Shown here piece by piece: positions 6,763 through 53,462 of a stretch of 64,000 bases of DNA (its first letter is position 1; each line of letters begins with the position of its first letter). Origin of the DNA: Pseudomonadota bacterium (GTDB taxonomy: Bacteria > Myxococcota > JACRCW01 > JAFGSX01). A program made the translations under genes and the position numbers. The stretch covers positions 32,001-96,000 of the forward strand of contig JBDRCO010000052.1 of the NCBI GenBank assembly GCA_043821645.1, given 5' to 3'. Below the pieces are notes generated by a model. That model made no database searches. It was given only the letters and a program-made list of their open reading frames with translations, and had not been told where the DNA came from.

Positions 6763-6915
6763 CAGGACCTCCGGGGAACGACGTCCCAGGATAACCCCAC
6801 GCTGACGGGGGCAGCAACGCGACGACCTGGTGATGGAGATTGCCCGGGCACCGATGCACCGTTAGTCTGCGACGCCATCGATTCCCGGGTGACCCCGGAG
6901 AATGAGGGAGCGTGC

Positions 6916-8307: not shown

Positions 8308-8341
8308 AGGGAGCACAGCTCCCATCGTCGAGGGAGACCTC

Positions 8342-8761: not shown

Positions 8762-8772
8762 GGACCCAGGGA

Positions 8773-37753: not shown

Positions 37754-38710
37754 TCAGCGCGTCGCGGCCGCCGCGACCTGGGTCAAAGCCATGTCGAGCT
37801 GTTCATAGCTTTCGAACAGTCGGGCGTCGCTCCCGGAGAGGTCGAACCAGTCGCTCGAGGGAACACCGATCCAGGTCGTCACCTGGCTCGCCATCCGGCG
37901 CAGGCTCTGGCTCAGAGCGAGCCGCTCGTCAGACCCCAGATCTCGTACCACCGACAGCAGCAACAGGTGCGCGTGTGTTGTCTCAACGGCGCGCAGGATC
38001 TCCTCCTCGGGCAGGTTGGGGCCCAGGTAGATGGGCTCGAGCCCGCGACTGGCCGCCAGAATGGCGCCGACCAGCGTACCGAACTCGTGCAGGTGTCCCG
38101 CCGGGGTGGTGACGACGATCTTGGGAGCTCCGGGCTGCGGTGTGCTCCAGTTGAGCACCGAGGTCAGCAGGCCGCGCATCTGCGCCGACACCAGGTGTTC
38201 GTGCGCGATGCTGACCTCGCGTCGGTGCCAGCGCTCCCCCACTTCGAGCAGGATGGGCCGCACCACCTGCAGGGCGAGGTCCTCTGCCCGCAGCAGCATG
38301 GCGGCGCGGCTGAGCAGATCCGCCGCGCGGCGAACATCGAAACGTTCGATGGCCTCGAGATAGTCCGAGCGCACGCGGGCGTAGCTGCGATCGGCATCTG
38401 TGGAACCGTCCGCGGCGGTCCCGCTCTCGTCGTCGAGTTCGGCAAGCAGGGCCTCGAGTCTGGCATTCTCGAGGGCCGCCACGTCCATGATGTGGTGACC
38501 GCGCAAGGTCAGTTCTCGCAGCAAGGAGAGCCGATGGATGTCCAGCGACGAGAACTTTCGCGTGTTGCCGTCGGTGCGGTGGGGCTCCACGGCGGCATAG
38601 CGCTGCTCCCATTTGCGAATTGTGTCCGCGGAGAGCCCGGTGAGTCGGGTCGCGACTCGCATCGAGTAGGTGGCTTGCTCGCCTGCCTTTTCTAGTCTCG
38701 AAGAAGACAT
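37754..38710 (-). CDS. CarH/CarA/LitR-like MerR regulator with cobalamin-binding domain
   Basis: MerR HTH (TIRKWEQRY..P.RT), W-x9-EH motif (WHRREVSIAHEH), GHLHEFG and YLGPNLP. Confidence 0.9.
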   Translation of the reverse strand: MSSSRLEKAGEQATYSMRVATRLTGLSADTIRKWEQRYAAVEPHRTDGNTRKFSSLDIHRLSLLRELTLRGHHIMDVAALENARLEALLAELDDESGTAADGSTDADRSYARVRSDYLEAIERFDVRRAADLLSRAAMLLRAEDLALQVVRPILLEVGERWHRREVSIAHEHLVSAQMRGLLTSVLNWSTPQPGAPKIVVTTPAGHLHEFGTLVGAILAASRGLEPIYLGPNLPEEEILRAVETTHAHLLLLSVVRDLGSDERLALSQSLRRMASQVTTWIGVPSSDWFDLSGSDARLFESYEQLDMALTQVAAAATR

Positions 38711-38854
38711 GTCAAGATCCTGTCGCGATGTTGCCCTGGAACAATATAGACAGTTTCTTGTCCCGTGCAGTCGAGATCGGACCTGACCTGAGCTGCAGGC
38801 GCCTGTCGGCTCCCGGAGAGAGGTCGCGCTGGTACCATACAGAGGGGAGGGAGC

Positions 38855-39079
38855 ATGGCCAGGATCATAGATCTCGACGAAAAGCGTCAGGAACAGCAGT
38901 TGCGGCGAAGGATGCTCGAGCACATGTCGCGACTGGTTCGCGTGACGGGGCGTGTTCGGGATGCCCTGGCTGACCACGACGCCAACGCCGGCACAGAGGC
39001 AACGTCCACTCCGGATAGCCAGGGGAACCCCGAAGAAGACCCTCCGGACCCTGAACCCTGTGGGATGTCCAGGCTCTGA
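38855..39079 (+). CDS. Small hypothetical protein (74 aa)
   Basis: Strong GAGGGGAGGGAG RBS; starts MARIIDLDEKR; divergent from the CarH-like gene. Confidence 0.6.
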   Translation: MARIIDLDEKRQEQQLRRRMLEHMSRLVRVTGRVRDALADHDANAGTEATSTPDSQGNPEEDPPDPEPCGMSRL

Positions 39080-39260
39080 AGCGGAGCGTGGTGCCCTTTC
39101 CGTGAAGCCTCCCGCCTCGGGCACCGGGCCCGCAACACCACATCTTAAAGCGCAAGACACGAGGGCTCGAGCGCTCGGCTGACGTCGACGCCAGGATGCG
39201 CCAGGCGGTTGCACCAGCACCTTGTTTCTGCTGTCGTGCGGCCGCAAGGAGCAGCCCAAG

Positions 39261-40472
39261 ATGCAGCGACGACGAATCCAGACCGTGGCCCTGTGGGCGC
39301 TGACTTCACTGTGCTCCAGCCCGGGTCTGGCGGGCCCGCTCGACCCTTCGGGCCAGGTCGGGGAGGTGGCCGCCGACATGGCAGGTGCTGCAAGCCCGGC
39401 AGTCACCGAAGGCGCAGGCACCCAGGAAGAGGAGGTGCTCGATTTCGCAGCCGAGGAGGCCGCAGCGGATCAGAAGACCGCGCAGATCCTGCAGGCGGTC
39501 GCCGGGGCCGCGGGAGCCTTGAGCCAGCGTACGGGTTTCAAGCTCTACGCGGACCTGCTCGTCGACTACGGGGTGGGTCAGGAGTCTTTTGAGTTCAGGC
39601 CCAACCACATCGTGGTCATCTTGCAGATGCAGATCCTGGACAACCTGCTCTTTGCCACCCACATCAGCGATGACCCCGTGTTCTTCGAGCTCAACTGGAT
39701 GATCACACCCCGCCTCACGCTGAAGGCGGGCAAGCTGTTCATCCCCTTCGGCACCAACGAGTTTCACCACATCGTGGGCGGTCGCGTCGACGAGCTGTCG
39801 CAGTTCTTACCCGAGACCTGGAGCGACTACGGTGTGGGCTTGAGCTACCAGCTCCTCGACACGGACTGGTTCAGTGCGGACTACGATCTGTACCTGGTCA
39901 ACGGTTTTCAGGGGGAGGACAGGCCCCTGATCGGTGCGGCGACCACCAGCGACAACAACATGGCCAAGGGCTATGGCGCGCGTCTCAAGCTCACGGTGTT
40001 GAACCGGGTGCTGGTGACCGGGAGCCTGTACCACGACGTGTGGAGCCGTGATCAGCGGAACAACCTGCTGTTCTACTCGGTGGGCCTGGAACTCCGGCCA
40101 GGGCTCATTCCCCTGCCCGTGGTCGACCGCCTGCGTCTTCGCGGAGAGTGGGCGCGGGGCGAGTTCAAGCTGCCCCAGAGAAACTACCAGCAGGGTGTGC
40201 TGCGTCACGCCTACGCCCGCGCCGGTTTCTATGGCGAGGCGCTGCTGCCGCTGTGGGAGTGGGTCGGCGTGCGCTTGCGCGGTGGCCGGATCAATCCAGA
40301 TAACACCGTCACGGACGACGGCGACCTGTGGGTGCTGGAGCCCGCGGTGATCCTGGGCAAGGGCAAGGTCACCGTCCTGCTGGCATATCAGGCCCTGCTC
40401 CAGGACGGGCGGGCCTACTCACCGACGGAGCCAGCGGACATCGTCTACGGAAAGTTCTTCATACAGTTCTGA
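39261..40472 (+). CDS. Outer-membrane beta-barrel (porin-like) protein
   Basis: Signal peptide, amphipathic strands, LTLKAGKLFIPFG, YLVNG, and C-terminal aromatic signature YGKFFIQF. Confidence 0.8.
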   Translation: MQRRRIQTVALWALTSLCSSPGLAGPLDPSGQVGEVAADMAGAASPAVTEGAGTQEEEVLDFAAEEAAADQKTAQILQAVAGAAGALSQRTGFKLYADLLVDYGVGQESFEFRPNHIVVILQMQILDNLLFATHISDDPVFFELNWMITPRLTLKAGKLFIPFGTNEFHHIVGGRVDELSQFLPETWSDYGVGLSYQLLDTDWFSADYDLYLVNGFQGEDRPLIGAATTSDNNMAKGYGARLKLTVLNRVLVTGSLYHDVWSRDQRNNLLFYSVGLELRPGLIPLPVVDRLRLRGEWARGEFKLPQRNYQQGVLRHAYARAGFYGEALLPLWEWVGVRLRGGRINPDNTVTDDGDLWVLEPAVILGKGKVTVLLAYQALLQDGRAYSPTEPADIVYGKFFIQF

Positions 40473-40489
40473 TGATCCCGGGGTGTCGC

Positions 40490-41536
40490 ATGCAGAGGTG
40501 GTGGATCCTGGTCGTGCTGTCGACGTGGCTGCTCGCCTGCCCACGCCAGCAGGCCGCTCCCGAGGAGCTGCACGTGGTCACGCGCAGCGAAGAACACATG
40601 TCGACCTACGTGACCATCTCGGTGGCGGCGCCGAGGGGCGCCTCACCCGACGAGGCCATCACCGCCGCCTTTGCCGAGGTGGCGCGGCTGTCGGACACGC
40701 TCAGCGAGTGGCGTGAGCACAGTGAGATCTCCACGGTCAACGCTCAGGCCGGGGGTGCCCCGGTGGTGGTCAGCGCCGAGCTGTACCGGGTCATCCAGGC
40801 CGCGCACGCGGTCTCCGTCGACACCGAGGGCGCCTTCGATATCACCTTCAACGCCCTGTGGGGCCTGTGGGACTTCAAGGCTCCCAACCCCCGGGTGCCC
40901 ACACCCGAGGAGATCGCTCCACGCGTCGCCCTTGTCGACTATCGCCAGGTCACTCTCGACGACACCACCCACAGCGTGCGCCTCGGGAAACCTGGCATGA
41001 AAATGGGGCTCGGCGGCATCGCCAAGGGGTACATCGTGGACCGCGCCAGTGCCCTGCTCAGGGCCCGCGGCTTCACCAACCATCTCGTGAACGCCGGCGG
41101 CGATCTCTACGCCTCGGGGACCCGGGGGGACCGCAAGTGGCGGATCGGCGTCCGGGACCCCGGCACCAAGCAGATCTATGCCACGCTCGAGGTTCAGGAC
41201 CGAGGGCTTGCCACCAGCGGCAACTACGAGCGCTTCTTCATCAAGGACGGCCTGCGCTATCACCACATCCTGGACCCGAAGACGGGCATGCCCACGCGGG
41301 GCATCGCGTCGTCGACGGTGCTGGCGCCGGATGCCATGACCGCGGACGCCTATGCCACCGCGGTGTTCGTCCTGGGTGTTGACCGCTCACTGGCCCTGGC
41401 ACCCCGCAAGGGACTCGAGTTGCTGCTGTTCGACGAGGCCTTCCACACGCGCAGCACACCGGGCATGCCGGCGTTGCTCACTCTCATCGCCGAGGACGCC
41501 GGCTCGCCCGACCAGGACGAGAACAGGGCGCATTAG
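40490..41536 (+). CDS. apbE: FAD:protein FMN transferase (lipoprotein)
   Basis: Lipobox LLAC, GAFDIT, LGGIAKGY, VNAGGD, ATSGNYERF, YHHILDPKTG and ADAYATA. Confidence 0.96.
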   Translation: MQRWWILVVLSTWLLACPRQQAAPEELHVVTRSEEHMSTYVTISVAAPRGASPDEAITAAFAEVARLSDTLSEWREHSEISTVNAQAGGAPVVVSAELYRVIQAAHAVSVDTEGAFDITFNALWGLWDFKAPNPRVPTPEEIAPRVALVDYRQVTLDDTTHSVRLGKPGMKMGLGGIAKGYIVDRASALLRARGFTNHLVNAGGDLYASGTRGDRKWRIGVRDPGTKQIYATLEVQDRGLATSGNYERFFIKDGLRYHHILDPKTGMPTRGIASSTVLAPDAMTADAYATAVFVLGVDRSLALAPRKGLELLLFDEAFHTRSTPGMPALLTLIAEDAGSPDQDENRAH

Positions 41537-41596
41537 AAAACCCCTCCTCGACAATCCTCTGCGCGGCCCCGGGTGAGCTGCGATAAGCTCGTCGTC

Positions 41597-43291
41597 ATGG
41601 CTGCCACCGCTCTCCCGGGCTGCTCGACACCACATGCCGATGAGGAGCGCCAGCGCTCGCCGGGCGCTGCTCCCTGGTGGCTGTGGTTGCTGGGTCTAGG
41701 TCTGGGCGCCGTGCACCTGCTGGCCCACCTCGGAGCGCAGGCCACCGAGGCTCCACCCGCGCTCGTGTATGTGGGCTTCGTGCACATGGTGCCGGATCAC
41801 GCCAGCTATCTGGGCTTCGCGGACCAGGCTCGGCGGACCGGGGACCTCGCCCTGCGGGACCCCTTCACCACCTTGCCCCAGCACGGGCGCTTCGTGATGG
41901 CCTTCTTCTGGCTGGTGGGTCTGCTGGCGCGCCTCACCGCTGGCGACGTGCTCCTGGCCTGGTATCTGCTCGTTCCCCTGTGTTCGCTGGCCCTGGTGTG
42001 GGTGCTGTGGTGGCTGACCGGCCTGCTGTTCCAGGATCCTGGCTGGCGGCGCGTGGCTGTTCTTCTGTGCAGTCTCGGCGGGGGGCTGGGCTGGCTGGGC
42101 AAGCTGCTGAGTGCCGGGCTGGCCTCCCGGGAGGTCGTGGCCTTCGAGTGGAACTGGTCGCTGTTCGGCGCGGCCCTGGTTCCCACCTGGACCCTGGCAC
42201 ACGCCCTGCTCGCTGCTGCAGCGGGGTTGGTGCTGCAGGGGTGGACAACGCCTGACGCGGGGCCGTCGACGCGGCGTGCGTTGCTGCGCTGGCTGCGCAT
42301 TCCTGTACTTCTGCTCTGTGCCTTTCTGGTTCACCCCTACACGGGGCTCGCCGGCCTCGCGATCGTGGGGACGCTAGCGCTCACCGGATGCCTGGCCACG
42401 AATCGGCAGCGCTCCTTGCTGCAACAGCTCGAACCCCTGGCTGCCGTGCTCATCGCAGGCGGATTTATCGCGGTGCTGGGGCTGTGGGCCCGCGGTGACG
42501 ACGTGTACCGCGCCACCACGGGGAATCTCTTCACCTGGACGGAACACTACTCCCCGGTCTGGTATCCCCTGATGTACGGGGTGCCGCTGCTGCTGGCGGT
42601 GCTCGGTGGGCACAGCGCGCTTTGGGATCCCACGGCGTGGACGCTTCGCGGTGTACTGGTGTGGTGCCTGGTCGCGATGGCGCTCTCCAACATGTGGTTC
42701 CTTCCCGGGGTGAAGTTCCAGTTTCTCGTATTCCTGCCTCTCGGCCTGCTGGCGACCCAGGGTCTGCGTGTCGTCGTCGGTCGCTGGCCCTGGCTGGCGA
42801 CGGGAGAACGTCGCCACGTGCTGGCTCTTGGTCTGGCGCTCGGCATCGCCGGCGGACCACTCCCCGACGCCCTGCGCGGGATCATTCCGGCGCCGGGCAT
42901 GCGCATCCACGTCAGTCAACCCCAGCTCGATCTCCTCGCAGCCTTGCAGCAGCTGCCCGACGGCGGAGTACTGGCCCCCCCCGCGGCCGCCATCCTGGTG
43001 CCCTGGAAGGCGAGTAAGCCGGTGTTCGACGGACACTGGTTCCTGAGTCCGCATCACGAGCGCAATCTCGACGACCTGCGGCGCTTCTACCAGGCCGACA
43101 CCCCTGTGGCCTGGAAGGTGGAGTTCCTGGCCCGCGCGCACGTGCGCTACCTGCTCGAAGACCCCTGGAGCACTGGTTCCATCCCGTCGCGCATCGGTCC
43201 CTACGCGGTCCGCGAGCATTTTCGCAATGCCTTCGGACGGGTGCTCGAGCTGGTGGTGGATGAAGGTTCGCACGAGGGTGTGCAACCATGA
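41597..43291 (+). CDS. Polytopic membrane protein, probable GT-C-fold glycosyltransferase
   Basis: More than 10 TM segments; loop D..SY...DPFT; HPY; C-terminal GHW and VRYLL. Confidence 0.65.
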   Translation: MAATALPGCSTPHADEERQRSPGAAPWWLWLLGLGLGAVHLLAHLGAQATEAPPALVYVGFVHMVPDHASYLGFADQARRTGDLALRDPFTTLPQHGRFVMAFFWLVGLLARLTAGDVLLAWYLLVPLCSLALVWVLWWLTGLLFQDPGWRRVAVLLCSLGGGLGWLGKLLSAGLASREVVAFEWNWSLFGAALVPTWTLAHALLAAAAGLVLQGWTTPDAGPSTRRALLRWLRIPVLLLCAFLVHPYTGLAGLAIVGTLALTGCLATNRQRSLLQQLEPLAAVLIAGGFIAVLGLWARGDDVYRATTGNLFTWTEHYSPVWYPLMYGVPLLLAVLGGHSALWDPTAWTLRGVLVWCLVAMALSNMWFLPGVKFQFLVFLPLGLLATQGLRVVVGRWPWLATGERRHVLALGLALGIAGGPLPDALRGIIPAPGMRIHVSQPQLDLLAALQQLPDGGVLAPPAAAILVPWKASKPVFDGHWFLSPHHERNLDDLRRFYQADTPVAWKVEFLARAHVRYLLEDPWSTGSIPSRIGPYAVREHFRNAFGRVLELVVDEGSHEGVQP

Positions 43292-45597
43292 CGTCTTCAG
43301 CAACGCGCCCGGGTGGTGGCTGGATCCGTCGCGCACTCCTCGTTGCGGGGATAGGTCTCGCAACCAGCGCTGGCATGGCCCTCGCGCAGTGGTGGTTCGG
43401 GTGGGCTCGTCAACCGGGTGCGCTGCAGCAGAGCGTCCCTCTCGAGGCTTCGACGCTCCTTGCCCAGCCCCTGGTCCTGCCAGGGTCCGGGCTCGACAGG
43501 CTGGGTCTGGTCGTGAGCAAGCAGGGCGATCCCTGGCCTGCCACCCTGCAGCTCATCCTCCTCGACGGTGATTCCATCCCTCGCGACCAGCGGGAACTCA
43601 CCCGGCGCACCCGTGCCGAGTTCCTGCTGCGCGTCGGCGGCGATGCAGACCGTCGTCCCATCTGGCGGCCCCTGGAGAACGCCCTGAGCACGGACCTCAA
43701 CCAGCACATGCTGCTCCTCGTGGTGCGCAGGGACGCGCGGAGCTCCTCGGTGAGGCTCTGGCTGGGAGATGGCCAGCAGACCACTCCGTCGACGGCAAGC
43801 CTGCTGAGAGCCGGGCCAGGTGGCGAACTGCAAGCGACGGCGCTCGGGTCGGGCCTCGCACTGAGCGCGGGGTCTGTACCTTCGAGGGGACTGCGACAGC
43901 TGGCCTGGCTGGGCCTGTGGGTGTACGGGGCACTGGTGCTGGTGCTGGTGTGGCTGGGCAGGGCGCCGGCTGAAAAGGTGTCAGGGGCGACGGACGTGGC
44001 GTCCCCCGGGGATCGAAGGCTAGAGCGGCTGGCGGATCTGGTGGTGCTGCTTGCCCTGGTACTGGTGGTGGTGGGCACCGCCCGCACCGGTGTGGCCTGG
44101 GACGAGCAGGGGCTGGCAGCCTACGGTGGTTTCCTGGTCGAGTACTACGCGCGCTGGTTCCCCGATGCGGCCATCGTCGACCACTATCCCCTGTTCAACC
44201 TGCACCTGTACGGAGGTGCCTTCGAGCTCCTGCTCGCCGCGCTCGACCCGCAGATGCCCGGGTCGCCCTATGACATCCGTCACCTGCTGACAGGCTTGTG
44301 TGGGGTCGCCGGTCTCCTCGTCACGCGGGGCCTGGCGCGGCGCCTGGGCGGTCCTCGCGTGGCACTCTGGGCCGTGATCCTGCTGGCGATGCTGCCGTCG
44401 TGGAACGGACACTGGCTCAACAACACCAAGGATCTCCCCTTCGCCGTGGGCTGCACCTGGTCGCTGCTGGTGCTGGTCGACCTCGTGCAGAGCCTTCCCG
44501 AGGCGCCACCGCGCAGGGTCCTGCACCTCGGGCTCGCCATGGGCCTCAGCATGGGTGTGCGGGTGGCGGGGCTCATGCTCCCGGGGCTGTTGTTCCTCGT
44601 CATCCTGGGCTGGTGCCTGGTGTCCTGTTGGAAGCGGCGTGAACTGGGGTCGGCCGTCCGCCTGCTCGGTCGCCTTGCGGGGACGACCCTGCTGCCTGCC
44701 ACGCTCCTCGCCTATGCGTTGATGGTGTTTCTCTGGCCGTGGGCGCAGCAGGCAGTGCTGAGTCATCCCCTGCAGGCCCTGTTCACCTTCGGCGGCTTCT
44801 CGGACTACACCGACCGCGTGCTGGTGGCGGGGCAGTCCGTTCTCGCCACCGAGGTTCCTCGCAGCTACCAGTTGCTGTACCTGGTGGCCAAGCTGCCGGA
44901 GCTTCATCTGGCGCTGCTGGTGGCCACACTCCTCGTGGGCGGACTGGTGTTCTGGCGCGATCGAACGACTCTGGACCGTCGACATGGCGCCTGGGCGGTG
45001 GTGGCGGGTCTGGTCGTGCTCCCACTGCTCGCGGCGTGGCTGCTGCGGCCCACCATGTACGATGGCCTCCGGCAGTCGCTGTTCGTGCTTCCGGCCAGTT
45101 GCGTCCTCGCGGCGGGAACCCTGGACGGGCTGCTGGTCAGGCTGTGGAGTCGATCGAGGTCCGCATGCATTGCCCCGGCGCTGCTGCTCCTCGTCGCTGT
45201 CGGAGACCTGGGCCTGGCGACGGCGCGCTTGTTCCCCTACCAGTACATCTATTACAACCACCTCGTGGGCGGTGTGGAGGGTGCGCAGGATCGCTACGAA
45301 CTCGACTACTGGGGCCTGTGCTACCGGGAAGCCGTGCAGGACCTGCAGCAGGTTCTCGAGCAGCGCGCCGTTGCTCTCGACCCGCAGCGACCCGTGCGGG
45401 TGGCCAGCTGTGGTGAACGCAGCTCCTCGGAGGTCTTCTTCCCGACCTCCCTGGCCTGGGTTCGCACTCCGGAGTCTGCGGATTTCGTGCTCACGCACCG
45501 TCGACAGAACTGTCCGTGGCAGGACCTCGGTCACAGCGTTGGCACGGTTCAGCGCATGGGTGTGCGGCTGTGCGACCTGCGCGAGGTGACCCCGTGA
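43288..45597 (+). CDS. GT39/ArnT-PMT-like membrane glycosyltransferase with N-terminal periplasmic domain
   Basis: WDE in the first loop, NNTKDLPFA, MYDGLR and YELDYWG; ATGA overlap. Confidence 0.8.
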   Translation: MTSSATRPGGGWIRRALLVAGIGLATSAGMALAQWWFGWARQPGALQQSVPLEASTLLAQPLVLPGSGLDRLGLVVSKQGDPWPATLQLILLDGDSIPRDQRELTRRTRAEFLLRVGGDADRRPIWRPLENALSTDLNQHMLLLVVRRDARSSSVRLWLGDGQQTTPSTASLLRAGPGGELQATALGSGLALSAGSVPSRGLRQLAWLGLWVYGALVLVLVWLGRAPAEKVSGATDVASPGDRRLERLADLVVLLALVLVVVGTARTGVAWDEQGLAAYGGFLVEYYARWFPDAAIVDHYPLFNLHLYGGAFELLLAALDPQMPGSPYDIRHLLTGLCGVAGLLVTRGLARRLGGPRVALWAVILLAMLPSWNGHWLNNTKDLPFAVGCTWSLLVLVDLVQSLPEAPPRRVLHLGLAMGLSMGVRVAGLMLPGLLFLVILGWCLVSCWKRRELGSAVRLLGRLAGTTLLPATLLAYALMVFLWPWAQQAVLSHPLQALFTFGGFSDYTDRVLVAGQSVLATEVPRSYQLLYLVAKLPELHLALLVATLLVGGLVFWRDRTTLDRRHGAWAVVAGLVVLPLLAAWLLRPTMYDGLRQSLFVLPASCVLAAGTLDGLLVRLWSRSRSACIAPALLLLVAVGDLGLATARLFPYQYIYYNHLVGGVEGAQDRYELDYWGLCYREAVQDLQQVLEQRAVALDPQRPVRVASCGERSSSEVFFPTSLAWVRTPESADFVLTHRRQNCPWQDLGHSVGTVQRMGVRLCDLREVTP

Positions 45598-47396
45598 GCG
45601 TGGCGAACTCCGTCCTGCGGCCGAGCTGGAGCGCGCGCCTCCTGTGGTGGCTCATCCCCCTCGTCGTGGCGCTGTGGGCTGGCTGGGATCTGCTGGCACC
45701 CTGGGACGTCAACGGGCACAGCGTCTACCTCAACCACATCCGTCTGGTGGCTCTCGAGGCGACCCTGCGCGAGGGCGGTCTCTCCCTGCGCTGGCTGCCC
45801 CAGCTGTACTTCGGCCACGGCTCGCCGCTGTTCAACTACGTCGCGCCCTTGCCGACCCTGCTGGCCCTGGTCCTCGTGTGGATGGGCCTCAGCGCCAGCA
45901 TGGCCATCAAGCTCGTCTACCTCGGGGCCTTGCTCGGAGCGGCCCTCTCCACGGCCTGGCTGGCCCGCATCCTTGCTGGACCCTGGGCGGGCCTCGGTGC
46001 GGGCGTTCTCGTCGTGCTGGCTCCCTACGCGCTGGTCAACGTGTATGTCCGCGCGCAATTTGGCGAGCCCGTGGCTCTGGCACTGGCCCCACTGGCTCTC
46101 GTCGCCGTGCATCGTCTCGACGGCCCCAGACCCTGGCGCAGCGTCGCCCTGGGGGCGTGCGCGGTCGGCCTGCTCGTGCTCAGTCACAACATCGCCGCCC
46201 TCATGCTCTTCGCACTGGTTGCGGCCGCGGTGGCCGCCAAGATCTGGGCACATCCTCGTCGTGAACTCGTGCTGCGGGGGGCCGTTTTCCTGGGCCTCGG
46301 GCTCGGGCTCTCGGCCTGGCTGTGGCTTCCGGCCCTGGCGGAGACCTCGGCGGTGCAGGCCCGGGCCGCTCTCACCTCGGGACCCTTTGCCTATGACCTC
46401 CACTTCGTCACCTTCGGCCAGCTGCTCGGCGACAGCTGGGGTTACGGTGTCAGCGGACCCGGGGATCAGGACTCCATGCCCTTGCAAGCCGGGCGTGCGC
46501 TGCTCCTGCTGTGGGCTGCGGGCGCCCTGCTGACCGCGCGACGCTGGCGAGAGACGCCGGCGCTGGCACGCGTGATGGTGCTGGCGGCGCCCGTGGCGCT
46601 GTTCCTGACCACGGCGGCCTCGGCACCGTTGTGGCGCCATGTCCCCTTGCTGCCCTTCATGCAGTTTCCGTGGCGGTTTCTCCTGCTGTTCTGTCTGGCC
46701 GCGGCGGTCACCGCCGGTCTGGCGCTCGGGGATCTGGCCGGGCGTCTGCATCCCCCCTGGCGCGAGATCGTGCTTGGCCTCACGGTAGTTCTGATCGTCG
46801 TCATGAGTCAGCACCAGGTCAACGCGATGTACCTTCGCTTCAACCTGGCCACCCATGAGTCCGCCATCTTCGTCAAAAACAATGGTCCCAGCATCGACCA
46901 GGACCCAAACCTCGTTCCCATCGGCGAGGTGTACACCGCTTCGAACATCGTGCGGCTCGGAGTCTCGGCCACCATCGGTGACGACTACTTGCCGCGCGCC
47001 GTCGAGGACAAGCCCAGGGCACCTTCGTCGCAACCTGTCGAGGTGATCGCGGGTGCCTTGCAGGTCATTTCGGGGAATTCGGCGCCCCAGCGACACAGCG
47101 CGGTGCTGCGTGTCGACCAGGATGCGCGCCTGCGCTTTCCGCTGTTTTACTTCCCGGGCTGGATCGCACGTCTCGACGGCACCGAGATTCCCGTCGAGGT
47201 CGAGCCGCGCTCCGGGTGCATCGTGATCGACGTTCCCCGAGGTGAGCACGAGCTGGTGCTGCAGTTTGCGAGCACACCGCTGCGCTCGGTCTCGACGCTG
47301 CTGTCGCTGCTAGCTGGGATGGCGGTGCTGGTGCTGCTGCTGGGCTCCTGGTGGGCATGCAGGCGTCGAGCGATCACTCCCGCACCGGTGGCGTGA
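45594..47396 (+). CDS. PTPS-related/YfhO-like membrane protein (GT-C-like)
   Basis: RWLPQLYFGHGSPLFNY, LSHN, WLPA, QFPWRFL and YFPGW.A.LDG; GTGA overlap. Confidence 0.8.
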   Translation: MSVANSVLRPSWSARLLWWLIPLVVALWAGWDLLAPWDVNGHSVYLNHIRLVALEATLREGGLSLRWLPQLYFGHGSPLFNYVAPLPTLLALVLVWMGLSASMAIKLVYLGALLGAALSTAWLARILAGPWAGLGAGVLVVLAPYALVNVYVRAQFGEPVALALAPLALVAVHRLDGPRPWRSVALGACAVGLLVLSHNIAALMLFALVAAAVAAKIWAHPRRELVLRGAVFLGLGLGLSAWLWLPALAETSAVQARAALTSGPFAYDLHFVTFGQLLGDSWGYGVSGPGDQDSMPLQAGRALLLLWAAGALLTARRWRETPALARVMVLAAPVALFLTTAASAPLWRHVPLLPFMQFPWRFLLLFCLAAAVTAGLALGDLAGRLHPPWREIVLGLTVVLIVVMSQHQVNAMYLRFNLATHESAIFVKNNGPSIDQDPNLVPIGEVYTASNIVRLGVSATIGDDYLPRAVEDKPRAPSSQPVEVIAGALQVISGNSAPQRHSAVLRVDQDARLRFPLFYFPGWIARLDGTEIPVEVEPRSGCIVIDVPRGEHELVLQFASTPLRSVSTLLSLLAGMAVLVLLLGSWWACRRRAITPAPVA

Positions 47397-48945
47397 AGCT
47401 GGGCGTTGGCCGCTCGCGCAGCACCGTGGGCTGGCCCCGGCCATGAGCAAATGTCTTGAGCGCCGGCTCGCCGTACACGATCTTGCGGCAGGCGTTCTCG
47501 CACAGGCCACACCCCATGCAGCGCACGTAGTCCACGGCGGCAGGCCGGAGCGGGCGATCCGGGCGTGCAGCCTCGATGACGAAGGCCTTGGTCGGGCAGA
47601 TCTCGATGCACTTGCGGCAGGCCAGGTTGTCCGTGTACGAGATGCAGCGATCCTTCTCGAGAACGGCCGTGCCCATCTTGACCGACCACTTGTCGGTCTC
47701 GCGCTTGTCGAAGCGCGGGATGGCATCGCTGGGGCAGACTTCGCCGCAGGCATTGCAGTCCGCCCGGCATCCCCCCACCTCGGGTGTGATGGCAGGGGTC
47801 CACAGACCGGCCAGGCCAGCCTCCAGATGCGTGAGCTGCAGGGTCTGGGTCGGGCAGGCCTGCACACACATGCCACAGCGCACGCACTGGTCCAGGAAGG
47901 TGTCCTCGTCGAGCACGCGCGGTGGTCGCACCAGGGTGTTGGGATCCCCACGGTGGTAAGCCGCGAACGCGGTCAAGGGAGCCAGCGCCACGCCCGTGGC
48001 TCCGGCCACCAGAAAGGAGCGGCGGCCAAGCTCGAGCGGGCGGTCGACCTTGTGGCGCCCTGGACTCATCCAGTCGAAGCGGATGGCCTGCACGTGACAG
48101 AAGTCGCGGCCGCTCATGCAGCGGATGCACTCGTGGTTGAGTGTGAATTGGGGGTTCGAGGGCACCGCACCCATGCGGCATTCGCGAATGCATTGCTTGC
48201 CCGCGGCAAGCGCGTGGCATCCGTCGCAGCCCTTGACGCGCCGACGGAGCAAGGGGACGCGCGCGAGCAGGCCGTAGAAGGCCCCCAGCGGACACAGGTA
48301 GCGACAGTAGAAGCGGGGGCTGAGCGCGGTCAGGCCGAGCACGGTGAGCAGCAAGGCCAGGGGCAGGAAGGCGATGCCGTGGTACGGCGTGTGCCAGGTC
48401 CCGGGCAGCGCGTCGTCGGGCAGCACGGCAGTGAACGCTGGCCACAAGCCCCCTGCGGTGGCGCGAAAGAGCAGCACCAGCGGATCCAGCAGGTAGATCC
48501 ACTGCGACGACAGCAGGGCGCCGATCACCACGACCGTGAGCAGCACATACTTCCAGTGCTGCATGCGCTGGTGCTGGGCGAGGCTGAAGCGGGACTCGGG
48601 GGGGCGCAGGACCCTGGCCATGCCGTCGAGCAGGGTTCCCAGCGGACACAGCCAGCCGCAAAAAGCGCGACCCACGACCAGGGTCATGACGACGAGGACC
48701 AGCGAGCCCAGCAAGGTCGGGACCCACACCAGGGCCGAACCCATGGTGAGCAACGCGACCAGCGGATCGCTGATCAGAAACAGGTCTGTGCGCAGCGGCG
48801 AGGCGACGGGATCCCGCACCCAGAGGAACAGTGCGATCCACAGCAGCAGACTCAGCACTTGCGACAGGCGGCGCACCTGGCGCCATCCGGATCGGGTGGT
48901 CACCGTCGGCGGCGGATGGGGGCGGGCCTGGGCAGCAGCGGCCAT
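47374..48945 (-). CDS. NapH/MauN-like membrane Fe-S domain fused to NapG/MauM-like polyferredoxin
   Basis: FCGWLCPLG, YCRYLCPLG, CVRCGMCVQACP, CNACGEVCP, CRKCIEICP and CMGCGLCENAC. Confidence 0.9.
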   Translation of the reverse strand: MAAAAQARPHPPPTVTTRSGWRQVRRLSQVLSLLLWIALFLWVRDPVASPLRTDLFLISDPLVALLTMGSALVWVPTLLGSLVLVVMTLVVGRAFCGWLCPLGTLLDGMARVLRPPESRFSLAQHQRMQHWKYVLLTVVVIGALLSSQWIYLLDPLVLLFRATAGGLWPAFTAVLPDDALPGTWHTPYHGIAFLPLALLLTVLGLTALSPRFYCRYLCPLGAFYGLLARVPLLRRRVKGCDGCHALAAGKQCIRECRMGAVPSNPQFTLNHECIRCMSGRDFCHVQAIRFDWMSPGRHKVDRPLELGRRSFLVAGATGVALAPLTAFAAYHRGDPNTLVRPPRVLDEDTFLDQCVRCGMCVQACPTQTLQLTHLEAGLAGLWTPAITPEVGGCRADCNACGEVCPSDAIPRFDKRETDKWSVKMGTAVLEKDRCISYTDNLACRKCIEICPTKAFVIEAARPDRPLRPAAVDYVRCMGCGLCENACRKIVYGEPALKTFAHGRGQPTVLRERPTPSFTPPVRE

Positions 48946-49632
48946 CTACTTGCCGCCGGCCTTGGCTGCCTTTTCCTCGTCGGTGAGCAGTTCTCCACTC
49001 TCGATGGCCTTCTGGATCTGGGCCTGCACGGCAGCCCTGGCCTTCCGCACATCCTCGGACACGGCCACGGGTGCACCGCCGCCAAAGAACAGGTTATGCA
49101 GTGAGACGGCCTTGCGGGTGGCTGTGGCCGTGGCTTCCGCCGAGTAGGTGGCGCCGGTGACACTGTCGACGTCGGCCTTGACGGTCAGCGGGTCCTGGTG
49201 CGTCTTCTTCCGGAACTGCTTGAGAAAGCCCTTCTTGTTGATGGGGAAGGATCGCGGGCACGACAGCTCGACGATCACCGTCTCCTGAACCACGCCCGCC
49301 GCATCCATGCCGATGGCGTACTTGTGAAAGCACGTTCCGAACACCTCGGGTACCACGAAGACGTAGGCCAGATCCTCACCGCCCGAGCTGCGTCCGACGT
49401 AGAACACGTAGCTCGGTTCCTCGGCCTTCCAGCCATAGTCCTCGAGCAGGCGTTGCCGCTGTGCCGCGCTGGGCGTCTTGGTGACCTTGACGATCTTGGA
49501 ACCCTTGGGTGTGAAGGTCTTGACGGCTTGTTCCAGTGACATGTACTTGACCGCGGCTGCCGTCGACGACAGATGCACGCCAACCAGGGCCGTGACAGCG
49601 CACAGCGCTCCGCGAAGAACGTTCGAATTCAT
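48946..49632 (-). CDS. Exported FMN-binding (flavinylated) protein
   Basis: Signal peptide; FLKQF and VDSVTGATYS (TGAT flavinylation motif). Confidence 0.9.
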   Translation of the reverse strand: MNSNVLRGALCAVTALVGVHLSSTAAAVKYMSLEQAVKTFTPKGSKIVKVTKTPSAAQRQRLLEDYGWKAEEPSYVFYVGRSSGGEDLAYVFVVPEVFGTCFHKYAIGMDAAGVVQETVIVELSCPRSFPINKKGFLKQFRKKTHQDPLTVKADVDSVTGATYSAEATATATRKAVSLHNLFFGGGAPVAVSEDVRKARAAVQAQIQKAIESGELLTDEEKAAKAGGK

Positions 49633-50018
49633 CTCTTCTCCTCGACCTTGCCTCGCCAGCGCACCTGGCCGGCGATGAGCACGAGACCGAGCGCGGGTAG
49701 CACCAGCAGCCAGGGCCTGGTCACGTTCTCGGGAAATCCCGCGTTCGGTCCAGCCTCCACCGGGGCCGGGTCATCGGCAAAGACGACTTCTTCCTCGCTG
49801 TCCTTGCCCGGGACCGGGTCCGCCTGACCTTGCGCCGTGCCCTCGTCGTCGAACACCGCTTCTTCTTCGACGGTCTCCTCGACGGCCTGTGCGGGAGAGG
49901 CTCCCCCCGTCGTCGCCGGCTCGGCGTCCTGGCTCCAGGCAGGTGCAGCCAGCAGGATGGCGCACAGCACGAGCCCATCGGCGGTGTAAAGGGTGGTCTG
50001 ATGACGACGAGAATTCAT
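49629..50018 (-). CDS. Small exported acidic protein with C-terminal membrane anchor
   Basis: Signal peptide ending AWSQ, D/E-rich middle, PWLLVLPALGLVLIAG plus basic tail; ATGA overlap with the FMN-binding gene. Confidence 0.75.
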   Translation of the reverse strand: MNSRRHQTTLYTADGLVLCAILLAAPAWSQDAEPATTGGASPAQAVEETVEEEAVFDDEGTAQGQADPVPGKDSEEEVVFADDPAPVEAGPNAGFPENVTRPWLLVLPALGLVLIAGQVRWRGKVEEKR

Positions 50019-50024
50019 GTTCCC

Positions 50025-50053
50025 ACGCTACCCGCGCCTCGGTGTCCCGTCAA
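50025..50053 (-). promoter_or_regulatory. Sigma70-like promoter, probably leaderless transcript
   Basis: TTGACG-N17-TAGCGT ends 6 nt before ATG at 50018; no SD sequence. Confidence 0.5.
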
Positions 50054-50127
50054 TGTGAACACAGACCCGCTCGAACACGGGATGACACAAGTCAGACCCT
50101 GGCCGTGCCCCGGATCCCGGGAGCCCG

Positions 50128-52419
50128 CTACGGCGCCTTTACCCAGCGGAAGGTGATGCCGCCGGGGTCCAGGTAGCGCAGCTGGGAGGCGCCTCGCTCG
50201 ACGTCGGGAGCGGATTCCTCTGTGGCCTGGCCGAGAGTCACATTGAAGCCAGTGCTGCCGAGGCCCAGACGCTTGACGATGCGGTGCTGGCCGCGCGCAC
50301 TGAAGCTGGTGTCGCCCCAGCAGGTCTCGGTATCGGCCGAGGCCACCCACCCGGGGTCCCTATCCAGGCTCAGCAGGATGTGCACCAGGTATTCACCCTG
50401 GGGTATGCGCTGCAGGTTGCGATCCAGGGGCAACCACTCCAGAACCTTGAGCCCGGGCAAGGTGGTGGCCTCGGTGACACCGTCGATGAGGTCCAGGTCC
50501 TCGTTGCTGATGCGAACGCGTCCTGTGCCGTCGACCAGATCCCCGCCCTGGCTGCCACTCTGGTCATTGCGGCGGTCCGCGTTGCGGCCCAGGCCCACGC
50601 TCTCGAACACGCCACCTGTGACGAGGGCAGCGAGGTAGTCTGGAGCCCGGTAGTCCAGGTCCCAGAAGGGGTTCTGGTGACCTTGCTTCTGGCCCACGTA
50701 GTGCACCAGCGTGGCCACGTAGTCGATGCCCCTGCGTTCCTTGCTCGCTGCGTCAAAGGAGCAGCTCTCACCCGGCTGCAGCGGCCCCTCGATCCAGGCA
50801 TCCACCGCATACCTGTTGGCGCCGGTGTCGAAGCTGCTGGCCACGGGCTGTGCGGTGCTCAGATCGCGCAGATTGAACGACACGAGCAACTTGAAGCCCG
50901 CCGGCACAGGACCCTGGTAGGTCTGGGTGTAGTCCACCAGCACACGCAGGGGCTCGCTCAGGTTGCCCAGGGCATCGCGACAGCGCAGCTCCAGGTCGTT
51001 GACGCCGGGGATGAGATCCGCGTTGTAGACCCAGCTCGTGTCAGGACCGCGGGGCACCACCACCAGACCGTTGAGCAGCACCGAGGTGCTGGGGTCCCGC
51101 GTGCCCTCGAGCACCACCAGGGCTTCGTTCACGGTTGCCGGCGGGGCTGGGAACAGCGTCGGCGGTGCGGGTTGCACAGCGTCGCGCTGCACCATCAAGG
51201 TCACCGGTGCACTCGAGAAACCGTTGCGCCCGCGTGCCACGATCTCCAGATCGTTGACGCCGAGGTTGAGTGTCCAGCTCGCGTGCCAGGTGGTGCTACC
51301 GTCGATGGCAACGACCTCATTGCCGTTGATCCACACCGAGGATGGCGCGGGTTTGGTGCCGGACAGTGCCAGTTCGGTGGCGCGCGTTCGATGGCTCGAG
51401 GGGTCCACCTCGGCAGGGAGCTCCACTGTCGGGGGGAGTGGAGTGTTTCCATCCTCACCCGGGCCCGTGTCAAAGCTCCACACCCAGTCCGCCGGGGCTG
51501 GCACTGTCTGGTTCCCGGCGCTGTCCGCAAAGCGCCCGGCGTCGAGGGTCGCGGTGTAGCGCGTCCCGGGCTGCAGCGGCACCGCCAGGGACAGGGTGTG
51601 GCTGAGAGCCTGGTAGGTCAGCACGCCGCCAGGGCGCGTGCCGGCCGTATCGCGCACTACGAGAATGTCGGGATCGAGGCTATCGAACGAGAGCGCCAGG
51701 GCGTCATCGAGAGCAACCTGGATCAAAGCGTTGGTCGGCACGTCGACCTCGCCCACGGCGGGATAGCGCGAGACAAGCTGCGCAGGCACGCGATCCAGCT
51801 CCACCTCGAAGTCCACGGGCTCGCTCGACCGCCCGCGGGTGTCGCGCGCCACCAGCGAGAAGTGAAACAGACCATCGACGGCGCCCAGATCGAGCTGCGC
51901 GGTCCAGTCTGTGGATTCCCCTGCCTGCACAAACTCGGAAGAACTCAGCACGGCCCCCGTGCCATCGACGCGGCTCAGCCACAGTGCGGACCCAGTAGGT
52001 CGCGCGCCCTGCAAGTTCTGCAAGGGCTCCCGGGTGGGTGAGAGGACAGGCTGCAGCGTCGGCGCAGCCGGGAAATTAGGTTCGTAAAAAATCAGCCCCG
52101 GTGTGTGCTCGACGCTGGCGAGTCCGCTCTTGCGCTGAGAGGTCAGGTCGAGAGCGTTGTCGCCGGGTTGCAGCGCCACCTCCGCACTCCAGCCCTCCTG
52201 GGCGTCGTGGGCAACCAGGACCTCGCCGTGATTGAGCACGGCCGTGCCCGCGGGCTTGGTACCCTCGACGCGCTGCCGGGCGCGGCGCGTGGGAGACTCC
52301 ACCGGGAACAGACCAGGGGGGTCGGGCGGGACCTCGACGTCGCCCAGGCAGGCCGAGCCCAGGCCAAGCACCAGTGGCAGAGCCAGGATGCGGTAACGAG
52401 CAGAGAAAAAGACTGTCAT
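50128..52419 (-). CDS. Lipoprotein with tandem Ig-like repeats and C-terminal DUF2271-like domain
   Basis: Lipobox GSAC; four GT(K/R)P...NG...W...L..G.N.L repeats plus a Big_5-like unit (YP...DVPTNA.I...LQPGTRYT...WSFDT). C-terminal AWIE...VATL...IDGVTEAT...W..LD...GEY. Confidence 0.8.
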   Translation of the reverse strand: MTVFFSARYRILALPLVLGLGSACLGDVEVPPDPPGLFPVESPTRRARQRVEGTKPAGTAVLNHGEVLVAHDAQEGWSAEVALQPGDNALDLTSQRKSGLASVEHTPGLIFYEPNFPAAPTLQPVLSPTREPLQNLQGARPTGSALWLSRVDGTGAVLSSSEFVQAGESTDWTAQLDLGAVDGLFHFSLVARDTRGRSSEPVDFEVELDRVPAQLVSRYPAVGEVDVPTNALIQVALDDALALSFDSLDPDILVVRDTAGTRPGGVLTYQALSHTLSLAVPLQPGTRYTATLDAGRFADSAGNQTVPAPADWVWSFDTGPGEDGNTPLPPTVELPAEVDPSSHRTRATELALSGTKPAPSSVWINGNEVVAIDGSTTWHASWTLNLGVNDLEIVARGRNGFSSAPVTLMVQRDAVQPAPPTLFPAPPATVNEALVVLEGTRDPSTSVLLNGLVVVPRGPDTSWVYNADLIPGVNDLELRCRDALGNLSEPLRVLVDYTQTYQGPVPAGFKLLVSFNLRDLSTAQPVASSFDTGANRYAVDAWIEGPLQPGESCSFDAASKERRGIDYVATLVHYVGQKQGHQNPFWDLDYRAPDYLAALVTGGVFESVGLGRNADRRNDQSGSQGGDLVDGTGRVRISNEDLDLIDGVTEATTLPGLKVLEWLPLDRNLQRIPQGEYLVHILLSLDRDPGWVASADTETCWGDTSFSARGQHRIVKRLGLGSTGFNVTLGQATEESAPDVERGASQLRYLDPGGITFRWVKAP

Positions 52420-52544
52420 GCAGACCTCGGCATGCGGTTCACCATCCTGGTTAGCAAGAACCGGAGGTGCTGTCAGCGCCCGTGGAAGCCACGGCCTTGA
52501 GCGAGGGCCTCGGCTACGTTAGGGTCCTGACGACGAGGTGGGGA

Positions 52545-53462
52545 GTGACCATCCATCGCCAGCGCTGTGTTGTCGTCGGAGCAGGGCCAGCGGGCCTGTC
52601 CGCGGCCCTGTGGATGGACAAACTTGGTGTGCCCTTCGTGCTCCTCGAGGCGGGTGCGCAGCTCGGCGGGGAGCTTGCGCGTATCCACCTCCCGATCCGC
52701 GATCTTCTCGGCGTGCAGGTTGGTGATGGTCGCGATTTCCTGCGCCGGGTGCAGGAACAGCTCGCAGGAAAGCGCTGGGACCTCCGCTTTGGAACGGCGG
52801 CGCGCCGCGTCGATATCCGGAACCATCGACTGGAGACCAGTACGGGATGCTTCGAGGCCGAGGCCATCCTGCTGACCATGGGTCTCCGCCGCCGCCGTCT
52901 GTCGATTCCCGGCGCAGAGGCCTTTCTGGGTCGCGGCCTTTCCTATTCCGCGACCACGGATCTCGAGGCCTTGACGGGCCAGCCTACCGTTGTGCTCGGT
53001 GGTGGCGACGGCGCCTTCGAGAATGCACTGATCCTCGCAGATCACTGTCCGCGGGTCTGGATCGCGCACCGGGGTCCGCAGGCCACCGCCAGGCTCGAGT
53101 TCGCCCGGCGTGCCAGCGCGCACCCACACATCACCATTGTGCCCGACGCCGAGCTGTCACGGCTGCTGCCCGGGCCTGGCTCGCTGTCCGGCGTTGAGCT
53201 GGCCACGCCGAGTGGTGTGACGGTCATCGACGCCAGCTGGGTGGTGGTCAAGATTGGCTTCGATCCCCGCACCGAGGCCCTCGTTGACGACGATCTGCAG
53301 CGCGATGCACACGGATATATCGTCGTGGATCGCAGGTTGCGCACGTCGGCCGACGGCGTCTTCGCCGCCGGGGACCTGTGCAACCCCCACGCGCCCAGCC
53401 TGGCCGCAGCCATCGGTGATGGTGCGGTGGCAGCAGCGTCCATTCATCGCTATCTGAGCTAG
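52545..53462 (+). CDS. Thioredoxin-reductase-fold NAD(P)/FAD oxidoreductase lacking CxxC
   Basis: VVGAGPAG, GRGLSYSATTD, GGGDGAFE and GVFAAGD. Confidence 0.88.
   Translation: MTIHRQRCVVVGAGPAGLSAALWMDKLGVPFVLLEAGAQLGGELARIHLPIRDLLGVQVGDGRDFLRRVQEQLAGKRWDLRFGTAARRVDIRNHRLETSTGCFEAEAILLTMGLRRRRLSIPGAEAFLGRGLSYSATTDLEALTGQPTVVLGGGDGAFENALILADHCPRVWIAHRGPQATARLEFARRASAHPHITIVPDAELSRLLPGPGSLSGVELATPSGVTVIDASWVVVKIGFDPRTEALVDDDLQRDAHGYIVVDRRLRTSADGVFAAGDLCNPHAPSLAAAIGDGAVAAASIHRYLS

Follow-up and report, generated by a model that had tools for sequence, protein, structure and literature searches.

A linked porin, ApbE, lipoprotein, FMN-protein and NapH-NapG gene set in Myxococcota: a candidate haem-free route for electrons across the outer membrane

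Can electrons be passed from the inner membrane of a diderm bacterium to its surface by flavins and iron-sulphur (Fe-S) clusters, in the place of multihaem cytochromes? The question is raised by a group of genes in a 64,000-nucleotide stretch of a genome from the Myxococcota (contig JBDRCO010000052.1 of assembly GCA_043821645.1; the whole stretch is called the window below). Between positions 39261 and 52419 of the window, genes for an outer-membrane (OM) porin and for the FAD:protein FMN transferase ApbE converge on a set of reverse-strand genes that encode a lipoprotein with immunoglobulin-like (Ig) repeats, a small anchored protein, a secreted FMN-binding protein (fmn) and a polyferredoxin in which NapH and NapG are fused (napHG). 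An earlier note on this DNA, made from the sequence alone, had proposed that these genes encode a flavinylation-based electron-transfer system that spans the envelope.

Two observations carry our answer. The genes are linked wherever the rare domain of the lipoprotein is found, and the set maps part for part onto clusters of multihaem cytochrome genes in related genomes, which is why we favour a flavin/Fe-S conduit. More specifically, we put the chance at about even that the module is the flavin/Fe-S counterpart of a porin-cytochrome conduit, one that would run outwards from the inner membrane and end at the outer membrane or the cell surface. The overall reading of the earlier note is thus upheld for the genes, their linkage and the predicted topologies of their products, and has to be amended with respect to the site in the lipoprotein, which is non-canonical, and three inserted genes that went unmentioned.

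Linkage of the gene set across Myxococcota

A profile of the lipoprotein domain matched six of 401 Myxococcota genomes (G000, G027, G037, G068, G119 and G235). In all six the porin, the lipoprotein, the FMN protein and NapHG are encoded on one contig, as judged by tblastn, and in five of them ApbE adjoins the porin. The arrangement itself has changed repeatedly. In G027, G068 (locus L027) and G119 the genes form a single co-directional operon in the order porin, apbE, lipoprotein, second lipoprotein, small gene, fmn and napHG. In G235 the unit lipoprotein-fmn-napHG converges directly on apbE-porin, with apbE and napHG adjacent, and the window has the same two convergent units with three foreign genes inserted. 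In G037 the porin gene is divergent from the lipoprotein gene, the napHG-fmn-small group lies 24 kb away, and three ApbE genes are found on other contigs. Gene starts in the related loci were taken from a simple caller based on GC3. The flanking genes vary from genome to genome, and no conserved gene for a terminal enzyme or reductase was found beside the module in the six genomes. The linkage of so rare a gene set, kept through three rearrangements, provides good evidence that the six genes form one functional module. The earlier note had staked its proposal on co-occurrence in related genomes, and on this point the module survived.

Within the window, which has a G+C content of 65-70%, the gene map was built from the listing of open reading frames (ORFs) together with Pfam and NCBIfam, and signal peptides and lipoboxes were assigned by eye. 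All genes named in the earlier note were recovered. The start of apbE overlaps the stop codon of the porin gene, napHG and fmn abut exactly, and fmn overlaps the small gene by 4 nt; the tight packing that had been claimed for the last three genes is therefore correct.

Predicted carriers from the inner membrane to the cell surface

The proposed route starts at NapHG (47374-48945, reverse strand). The protein matches Fer4_5 (PF12801) with 71.5 bits in two stretches, and the NCBIfam NapG/NapH models with an E-value of 1e-27. Hydropathy indicates transmembrane (TM) segments at about residues 30-48, 73-91, 134-152, 190-208 and 311-329. CX3CP motifs are found at 96 and 214, and a cytoplasmic Cys cluster is followed by a twin-arginine motif, RRSFL (307-311), immediately before TM5. 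The periplasmic domain that comes next contains four 4Fe-4S motifs (residues 354-486). NapHG thus combines the features of a Sec/Tat dual-targeted polyferredoxin, namely four NapH TM domains (TMDs), a twin-arginine motif before TMD5 and a NapG-like four-cluster C-terminus, and would bind about six Fe-S clusters in total. The orthologues in the five other module loci are 57-61% identical. The topology was read from the sequence, for an architecture that is known from Tooke et al. (2017). In the proposed mechanism the NapH part would take electrons from quinol or from a cytoplasmic donor and hand them to the protein's own Tat-exported, NapG-like periplasmic domain.

The next carrier would be the FMN protein (48946-49632, reverse strand), flavinylated by the ApbE of the module. 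Its FMN_bind (PF04205) score of 21.6 bits lies just under the cut-off of 22; two orthologues scored 28.2 and 24.5 bits, and distant relatives 23.8-44. The signal peptide ends in an AxA cleavage site, and the flavinylation motif reads DSVTGAT (SVTGATYS on the gene map). In an alignment of the window protein with nine relatives (A6), G160 and A161 are invariant and [ST]GA[ST] is present in ten out of ten sequences. The FMN protein should therefore be a soluble periplasmic substrate of ApbE, unlike NqrC and RnfG, which are membrane-anchored. The motif fits the D-x-x-[S/T]-G-A-[S/T] pattern given for ApbE in a passage of a review (PMC12052999). Close orthologues (59-62% identity) were found in only two of 60 relatives searched, and a locus scan with the FMN protein alone gave 526 pattern matches, none of which was confirmed. 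ApbE itself (40472-41536, forward strand) is clear-cut: its match to PF02424 scores 295.4 bits and takes in positions 1-264 of the 266 in the profile, and its N-terminus (...LLAC) has the form of a lipoprotein signal. Export signals are thus present on ApbE, the lipoprotein and the FMN protein alike.

In the Ig-repeat lipoprotein (763 aa; 50128-52419, reverse strand) the lipidation site (...GSAC) comprises a near-invariant Cys24 and is followed by a conserved LGDV-x-VPP..PP peptide, LGDVEVPP..PP in the window. About five Ig-like domains follow, one of which matches Big_5 with 45.8 bits (residues 209-318). From about residue 495 onwards the protein ends in a 269-aa beta-sandwich (50131-50937), for which AF2 with 50 aligned sequences gave a pLDDT of 94.9 and a pTM of 0.92. 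Foldseek against the PDB returned no match to this model at E<=0.001, and the best-scoring match of a wide VIA-align search, at Z 6.0, was to C2 domains, i.e. to a generic sandwich. Out of 1.84 billion proteins, a profile of the domain picked up no more than 47 cluster representatives.

In this domain the earlier note had placed a canonical [S/T]GA[S/T] site. The sequence, however, reads DGVTEAT, with the usual Gly replaced by Glu. Over orthologues and paralogues (alignments A1 and A5) D646, T649 and A651 never vary and G647 and T652 hardly ever do, while position 650 is variable; Cys553, Cys700 and an ETCW motif are invariant as well. The pattern D-x-x-[ST]-x-[AS]-[ST] was found at the equivalent place in 39 of 54 family sequences inspected, the remaining 15, several of which are fragments, lacking it. 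Among the 39, the fifth motif position is Glu in 18, Gln in eight, Ser and Gly in four each, Ala in three, and His and Lys in one each. One of the G037 paralogues has DGTTGAT, and distant family members of about 400 aa keep a canonical site, DG[VI]SGAT, or have SSAT. The window protein falls outside the DUF2271 family (PF10029), having 22.2 bits against a cut-off of 27.3 and no conserved [S/T]GA[S/T]. Within the lipoprotein family, 22 of 50 members matched DUF2271 at E<=0.01 (best 7.9e-7), scoring 22.2 to 24.1 bits and covering positions 62-100 of the 136 in the profile, and even the best-scoring member stayed below the gathering cut-off. Of the profile searches that the earlier note had called for, those for ApbE and Fer4_5 thus came out above cut-off, that for FMN_bind marginally below it, and that for DUF2271 below threshold. 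We take the site of the lipoprotein to be a putative flavinylation site of the DUF2271-like kind, which has diverged but is still maintained by selection. The recognition site of ApbE may tolerate Glu, Gln or Ala in the place of Gly. According to part of the text of the review cited above (PMC12052999), a Gly-to-Ala change in another ApbE substrate left about 50% of the flavinylation.

Eight of the 14 distant members scanned have C-terminal sorting tails of the type IX secretion system (T9SS) at E<=0.01 (P0040, P0042-P0045, P0047, P0050 and P0054), only P0044 and P0047 being above the Pfam cut-off. The tails point to a location of the domain family at the cell surface, and these relatives may be flavinylated proteins that are displayed there by the T9SS. 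Paralogues of the lipoprotein also occur outside the module. In the window's own genome a shorter one, with Big_5 and the C-terminal domain, is encoded on contig C69 (locus L049 9574-11499, reverse strand), beside genes for a MopE-like protein with metal-binding motifs and a response regulator. G037 has extra copies at L026 60-1646 and L052 9558-11753, as well as a second barrel (L087) of the clade called I below.

At the outer membrane the route would end in the porin and the Ig-stalked lipoprotein or lipoproteins, with a second FMN attached by ApbE at DGVT-x-AT. The porin (39261-40472, forward strand) has a signal peptide and ends in ...FFIQF. Its AF2 model, based on 16 aligned relatives (A7), has 16 strands and a mean pLDDT of 66.5; the barrel reaches about 70-93, and some loops and the acidic N-terminal 89 residues stay below 50. 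This N-terminal extension is disordered apart from a helix at residues 62-82 and contains the motif EEEVLDF..EE. The best solved matches of the model in Foldseek were OmpC, the chitoporin VhChiP and OprO/OprP (E about 1e-8), and its nearest neighbours in the ESM Atlas were Porin_O_P clusters at 0.96. The window barrel had no Pfam match even at E<=10, Porin_O_P (PF07396) included, and a relative in G028 reached 41.9 bits with that family, so that the porin is at most a distant relative of OprO/OprP. The family is single-copy in the window's genome.

The small acidic protein (49629-50018, reverse strand) matched no Pfam or NCBIfam family. Hydropathy indicates a signal peptide and, at the C-terminus, a TM helix, with acidic EE-V-x-[FL]-[AD] repeats in between. 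A counterpart of the same layout is encoded between the lipoprotein and fmn in all six module loci. A similar acidic motif, EE-x-V-x-[FL]-[DA]-x-[ED], is found in the module porins immediately ahead of the barrel (39261-39530 in the window), once or twice in the small protein of all six genomes, and in a loop of a membrane protein encoded beside the barrel G042a, to which we return below. A docking peptide common to all three is one possibility, mere acidic low complexity the other. That the small protein and the acidic extension of the porin are docking sites is speculative. The same holds for two suggestions that might get round the difficulties listed further on: the lipoprotein may pass its conserved N-terminal peptide through the pore, as RcsF does in OmpA/C/F, and the stalk of five domains may span the periplasm. 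The acceptor would lie outside the module and is probably extracellular or surface-bound.

The 5.8 kb between apbE and napHG hold three genes that the earlier note did not mention, all on the forward strand and all for large polytopic membrane proteins by TM prediction: one of 572 aa without a Pfam family (41573-43291), one of 769 aa that is PMT_2-like (43288-45597) and one of 626 aa that is PTPS_related/YfhO-like (45516-47396). Searches with tblastn gave no match to them in the related loci L015-L035 and L049-L052. As candidate parts of the module they were rejected, because they were not found in the five related loci. The region 41573-47396, whose products have a GT-C-like look, appears to be a lineage-specific insertion, possibly one for glycosylation or polymer export. 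The module is flanked by genes for a CarH-like regulator with MerR and B12-binding domains (37754-39421, reverse strand), a thioredoxin-reductase-like flavoprotein (52467-53462, forward strand), which is transcribed away from the lipoprotein gene, and an amine-oxidase/phytoene-desaturase-like protein (53535-54551, forward strand), none of which is kept beside the module in the other genomes. Inspection by eye, without a formal motif scan, revealed nothing convincing in the way of a sigma-54-like box upstream of either unit. The sequencing runs listed as containing the window's organism were all of DNA, from groundwater, biofilm and aquatic metagenomes.

Haem-based sister clusters and the rival explanations

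The window lacks any gene for a c-type cytochrome, as the earlier note had remarked: over its 64 kb the sole CXXCH in a coding-like frame is in the cytoplasmic Fe-S part of NapHG, and the porin, the FMN protein, the small protein and the lipoprotein have none. The relatives of the porin present a different picture. Of the 96 pattern matches in a locus scan with an alignment of three barrels, 11 were confirmed as loci of the family. Three of these are module loci, seven lie among haem genes and one (L030) was too short to judge. Five of the seven haem loci (L028, L029, L032, L033 and L035) share a common pattern, established by Pfam on L028, L029 and L033 and by motif counts on all five, with the barrel at about 6700-9170. 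It consists of a NapC/NirT protein with four CXXCH motifs, a c7 cytochrome with three, a domain with two that is fused to the barrel (700-740 aa), a small lipoprotein with one, and a lipoprotein of 770-813 aa with a Big_2 Ig domain and ten. The same cluster, with a barrel of the 16-strand type, recurs at L053-L059 and L090, and looks like a distinct myxobacterial porin-cytochrome system. Besides the L028-type barrels with two haems, a fused relative with one haem was found at L034, whereas the window barrel is without a haem motif. These fused proteins resemble the fused cytochrome-porins of iron oxidisers.

The two kinds of cluster correspond to each other part for part. NapHG takes the position of NapC/NirT, the FMN protein that of the trihaem c7 cytochrome, the porin with the acidic extension that of the porin with the dihaem extension, the Ig-stalked lipoprotein or lipoproteins that of the decahaem Ig-domain lipoprotein, and ApbE that of cytochrome maturation. 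The correspondence extends to the sequence of the barrel. An hhalign comparison of the module barrels with those of the cytochrome clusters gave 99.7% (E 2.7e-26, 285 columns), and 99.2% with a seven-barrel alignment. By this measure the porin is a full-length homologue of the porins in myxobacterial multihaem clusters, a homology that covers only these clusters, themselves uncharacterised; the barrel profile had no match at E<=1 among the PDB sequences. The PDB holds MtrB, a barrel of 26 strands.

The wider family occurs in more than one context. The barrel profile matched at least 160 of the 401 Myxococcota genomes, a count that includes one unpublished genome (G195). We examined 6 kb on each side of 40 barrel loci, hand-picked to spread over genera, with custom HMMs and CXXCH counts. 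FMN_bind was adjacent in 17 loci, 14 of which also had ApbE; nine loci had ORFs with at least three haem motifs, one had a single two-haem ORF, 13 had neither FMN_bind nor haem, and none had napHG or the lipoprotein domain. These figures should be read in the light of the sample, for which the profile was built from both kinds of member, in which kin share context, and in which L053 is the same locus as L029. A tree of 58 barrels (IQ-TREE, LG+C20+F+G4, careful search, midpoint root only) separated two clades, both with support of 100/99. Clade I unites the six module barrels, the second G037 barrel, 16 barrels of cytochrome clusters and G042a, whereas clade II comprises 21 porins of FMN cassettes, 12 without context and L067. 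On this tree the module porin groups with the porins of multihaem clusters and not with those of the common porin/FMN_bind/ApbE cassettes. One porin family is thus common to haem-based and flavin-based extracytoplasmic redox modules.

In G042 both kinds of carrier are present together. A stretch of contig C10 (L017 5129-10644) encodes the clade-I barrel G042a, an FMN_bind protein, a one-haem lipoprotein like that of the haem clusters and a His-bearing membrane protein with four TM segments and an acidic EEELDLDL loop, and the gene for a ten-haem MtrC/MtrF-like protein of divergent sequence is transcribed in the opposite direction, away from them. As judged by its gene content, G042 combines flavin and haem carriers in one putative conduit. 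If the module is indeed the first conduit of its kind (see below), this hybrid would be an evolutionary intermediate.

The path from the Fe-S protein to the FMN protein and on to the lipoprotein and the porin, as the earlier note had it, agrees with the predicted topologies and with the place of the porin in the multihaem-porin clade; it agrees less well with the non-canonical site of the lipoprotein and with a pore of 16 strands. In this scheme we infer the flavinylation of both substrates, the order of the carriers, the direction of flow, the location of the lipoprotein and the nature of the acceptor. Several points weigh against the favoured reading. To judge from the model, the 16-strand porin is too narrow for an FMN domain to fit inside it in the folded state. 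As a bridge through the outer membrane, two single flavins are not many; MtrA has ten haems for the task. The lipoprotein may not be flavinylated, since its site lacks the conserved Gly (with E, Q, A, H or K instead in 31 of 39 members), and the match to DUF2271, besides being below the Pfam cut-off, covers only 39 of 136 profile positions. The lipoprotein may occupy either face of the outer membrane, and the conduit role of the cytochrome clusters is itself deduced from matches to Pfam families, MtrC/MtrF-like and NapC/NirT. Porins of the wider family also occur in porin/FMN_bind/ApbE cassettes (the 17 of 40 loci mentioned above), and the root of the barrel tree is a midpoint root only. Finally, the window's genome has many multihaem ORFs, among others on contigs C106, C51, C76 and C6 (24, 11, 11, 10, 9 and so on CXXCH motifs), five of them in a row on C106, so that a haem-free route is not needed.

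The main rival explanation confines the chemistry to the periplasm. NapHG would reduce the FMN protein, and perhaps the lipoprotein, and these would in turn reduce a solute that enters through the porin, ferric chelates for instance, with no electrons crossing the outer membrane. We consider this unlikely, though it has to be taken seriously. It is in line with the porin fold, which is that of an OprO/OprP-type solute porin, and with the wider porin family, which occurs most often with FMN_bind and without haems (the same 17 loci, 14 with ApbE). In G027 a gene for a TonB-dependent receptor is divergent to the operon, and in G030 an FMN_bind gene lies beside genes for a di-haem oxidoreductase and an imelysin. 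Moreover, a passage of Meheust et al. (2021; PMC8238504) ties many flavinylation clusters to iron assimilation. Yet the module barrel groups with the barrels of cytochrome clusters rather than with the cassette porins, and no conserved iron transporter is found beside the module in the six genomes. An AT-rich, repressor-like box was likewise unseen upstream of either unit, by eye and without a formal motif scan. A protein with six Fe-S clusters would be an odd choice under iron starvation and would better suit a respiratory role, and the type IX secretion tails on distant relatives of the lipoprotein domain suggest the surface as the site of action.

A second alternative, which we think quite improbable, restricts the redox unit to NapHG, the FMN protein and ApbE. 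The lipoprotein would then be a non-redox surface protein or adhesin with a decayed site, and the porin would be co-regulated only. The absence of Gly at the site of 31 of 39 members, the sub-threshold match to DUF2271, the Big_5 domains, which are typical of adhesin-like proteins, and the generic C2-type sandwiches (Z<=6.0) that are the best structural matches of the C-terminal domain would all be accounted for. A decayed site, however, would not be expected to keep D, T, A and T/S, with one position varying, across paralogues that are 26-60% identical. The linkage in six out of six genomes through three rearrangements, and the dedicated ApbE gene that immediately precedes the lipoprotein gene in the three genomes where the module is one operon, also argue against it.

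Least probable of all is a reversed flow, in which an extracellular or periplasmic donor such as Fe(II) feeds electrons through the porin and the flavoproteins to NapHG and the quinone pool: relatives of the barrel that carry one or two haems in a fused domain (for instance L034 and L028), the groundwater origin of the organism and a remark in Meheust et al. (2021; PMC8238504) that the direction in such systems could be reversed speak for it, but the low-potential Fe-S clusters and FMN would be poor acceptors for electrons from Fe(II), the module is without a cupredoxin or other high-potential carrier, and NapGH is a quinol dehydrogenase according to the discussion in Tooke et al. (2017; PMC5449189).

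Relation to known systems

We thus return to the flavin/Fe-S conduit as the favoured reading. To our knowledge, multihaem cytochromes are the sole route described by which Gram-negative bacteria pass electrons through their outer membrane, and flavin-based extracellular electron transfer has been described only in Gram-positives, which lack such a membrane. No description of a porin-flavoprotein conduit was found among the papers listed for these topics, as judged by title and abstract. It is conceivable, though we hold it at somewhat below even, that the module is the first porin-flavoprotein conduit of a diderm, haem-free and with two kinds of ApbE-flavinylated protein, one of them an Ig-stalked lipoprotein whose T-x-A-T site had gone unrecognised. 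If so, a flavin/Fe-S conduit would be a new way of passing electrons across the outer membrane, beside the haem 'wires', and a porin-linked flavinylated route in a diderm would join the haem-based and the flavin-based fields. Searches for haem motifs would then underestimate the number of bacteria able to respire minerals or electrodes, and a compact, haem-independent module of six genes would be available for heterologous hosts.

Among the closest systems are the NapH-like ones of Meheust et al. (2021; PMC8238504), which, in the part of the paper that describes them, have the same Fer4_5/NapH membrane protein together with ApbE and an FMN-binding domain; 539 such clusters with a separate FMN-binding gene are reported there. 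By their definition, which asks for a PF12801 protein no more than five genes away from one for ApbE, FMN_bind or DUF2271, the module is a cluster of this kind, and its export signals (...LLAC on ApbE, ...GSAC on the lipoprotein, AxA on the FMN protein, all by eye) agree with the export that is expected for such clusters. To these systems, as described in that text, the module adds the fusion to NapG, a porin of its own, and Ig-stalked lipoproteins whose site is DUF2271-like. The words 'porin' and 'barrel' do not occur in the main text of Meheust et al., which has no outer-membrane step, although the supplementary tables may list such clusters; they are also absent from the preprint of Huang et al. 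(2024; bioRxiv 10.1101/2024.03.13.584918) on DUF4405 cytochromes.

The polyferredoxin itself has a close counterpart in the MLMS-1 PFD of Tooke et al. (2017; PMC5449189), with the same NapH part (four TMDs and cytoplasmic Fe-S clusters), a fused NapG part with four periplasmic 4Fe-4S clusters and a twin-arginine motif before TMD5. Reporter fusions established that TMD5 of that protein is Tat-dependent and that it is Sec/Tat dual-targeted. In the sections cited here the work concerns membrane insertion only, and not partner proteins or function.

The likeness of the lipoprotein to the DUF2271 proteins of PepSY-like systems (Meheust et al. 2021; PMC8238504, from the part of the text on these proteins) consists of a short segment around the site with the strands that follow it, and of the link to ApbE. 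The module domain differs in its length of 269 aa, its two invariant Cys residues and ETCW motif, the replacement of the Gly, and its partner, which is NapHG rather than a PepSY-like protein. The porin/FMN_bind/ApbE cassettes share with the module the porin superfamily and the association of a porin gene with genes for a secreted FMN_bind protein and ApbE. Those porins, however, belong to the other clade, a small haem-b-type membrane protein takes the place of NapHG, and an Ig-stalked lipoprotein is lacking.

In its overall plan the module resembles the porin-cytochrome conduits, Pcc of Geobacter and MtrCAB of Shewanella, as outlined in a portion of Shi et al. (2014; PMC4245776). Both share a layout of four parts, predicted in the case of the module: a quinol dehydrogenase in the inner membrane, a carrier in the periplasm, a barrel in the outer membrane and a redox protein that is a surface lipoprotein. 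The differences are that the components of the module, without a haem motif, would stand in for multihaem cytochromes, and that its barrel has 16 strands.

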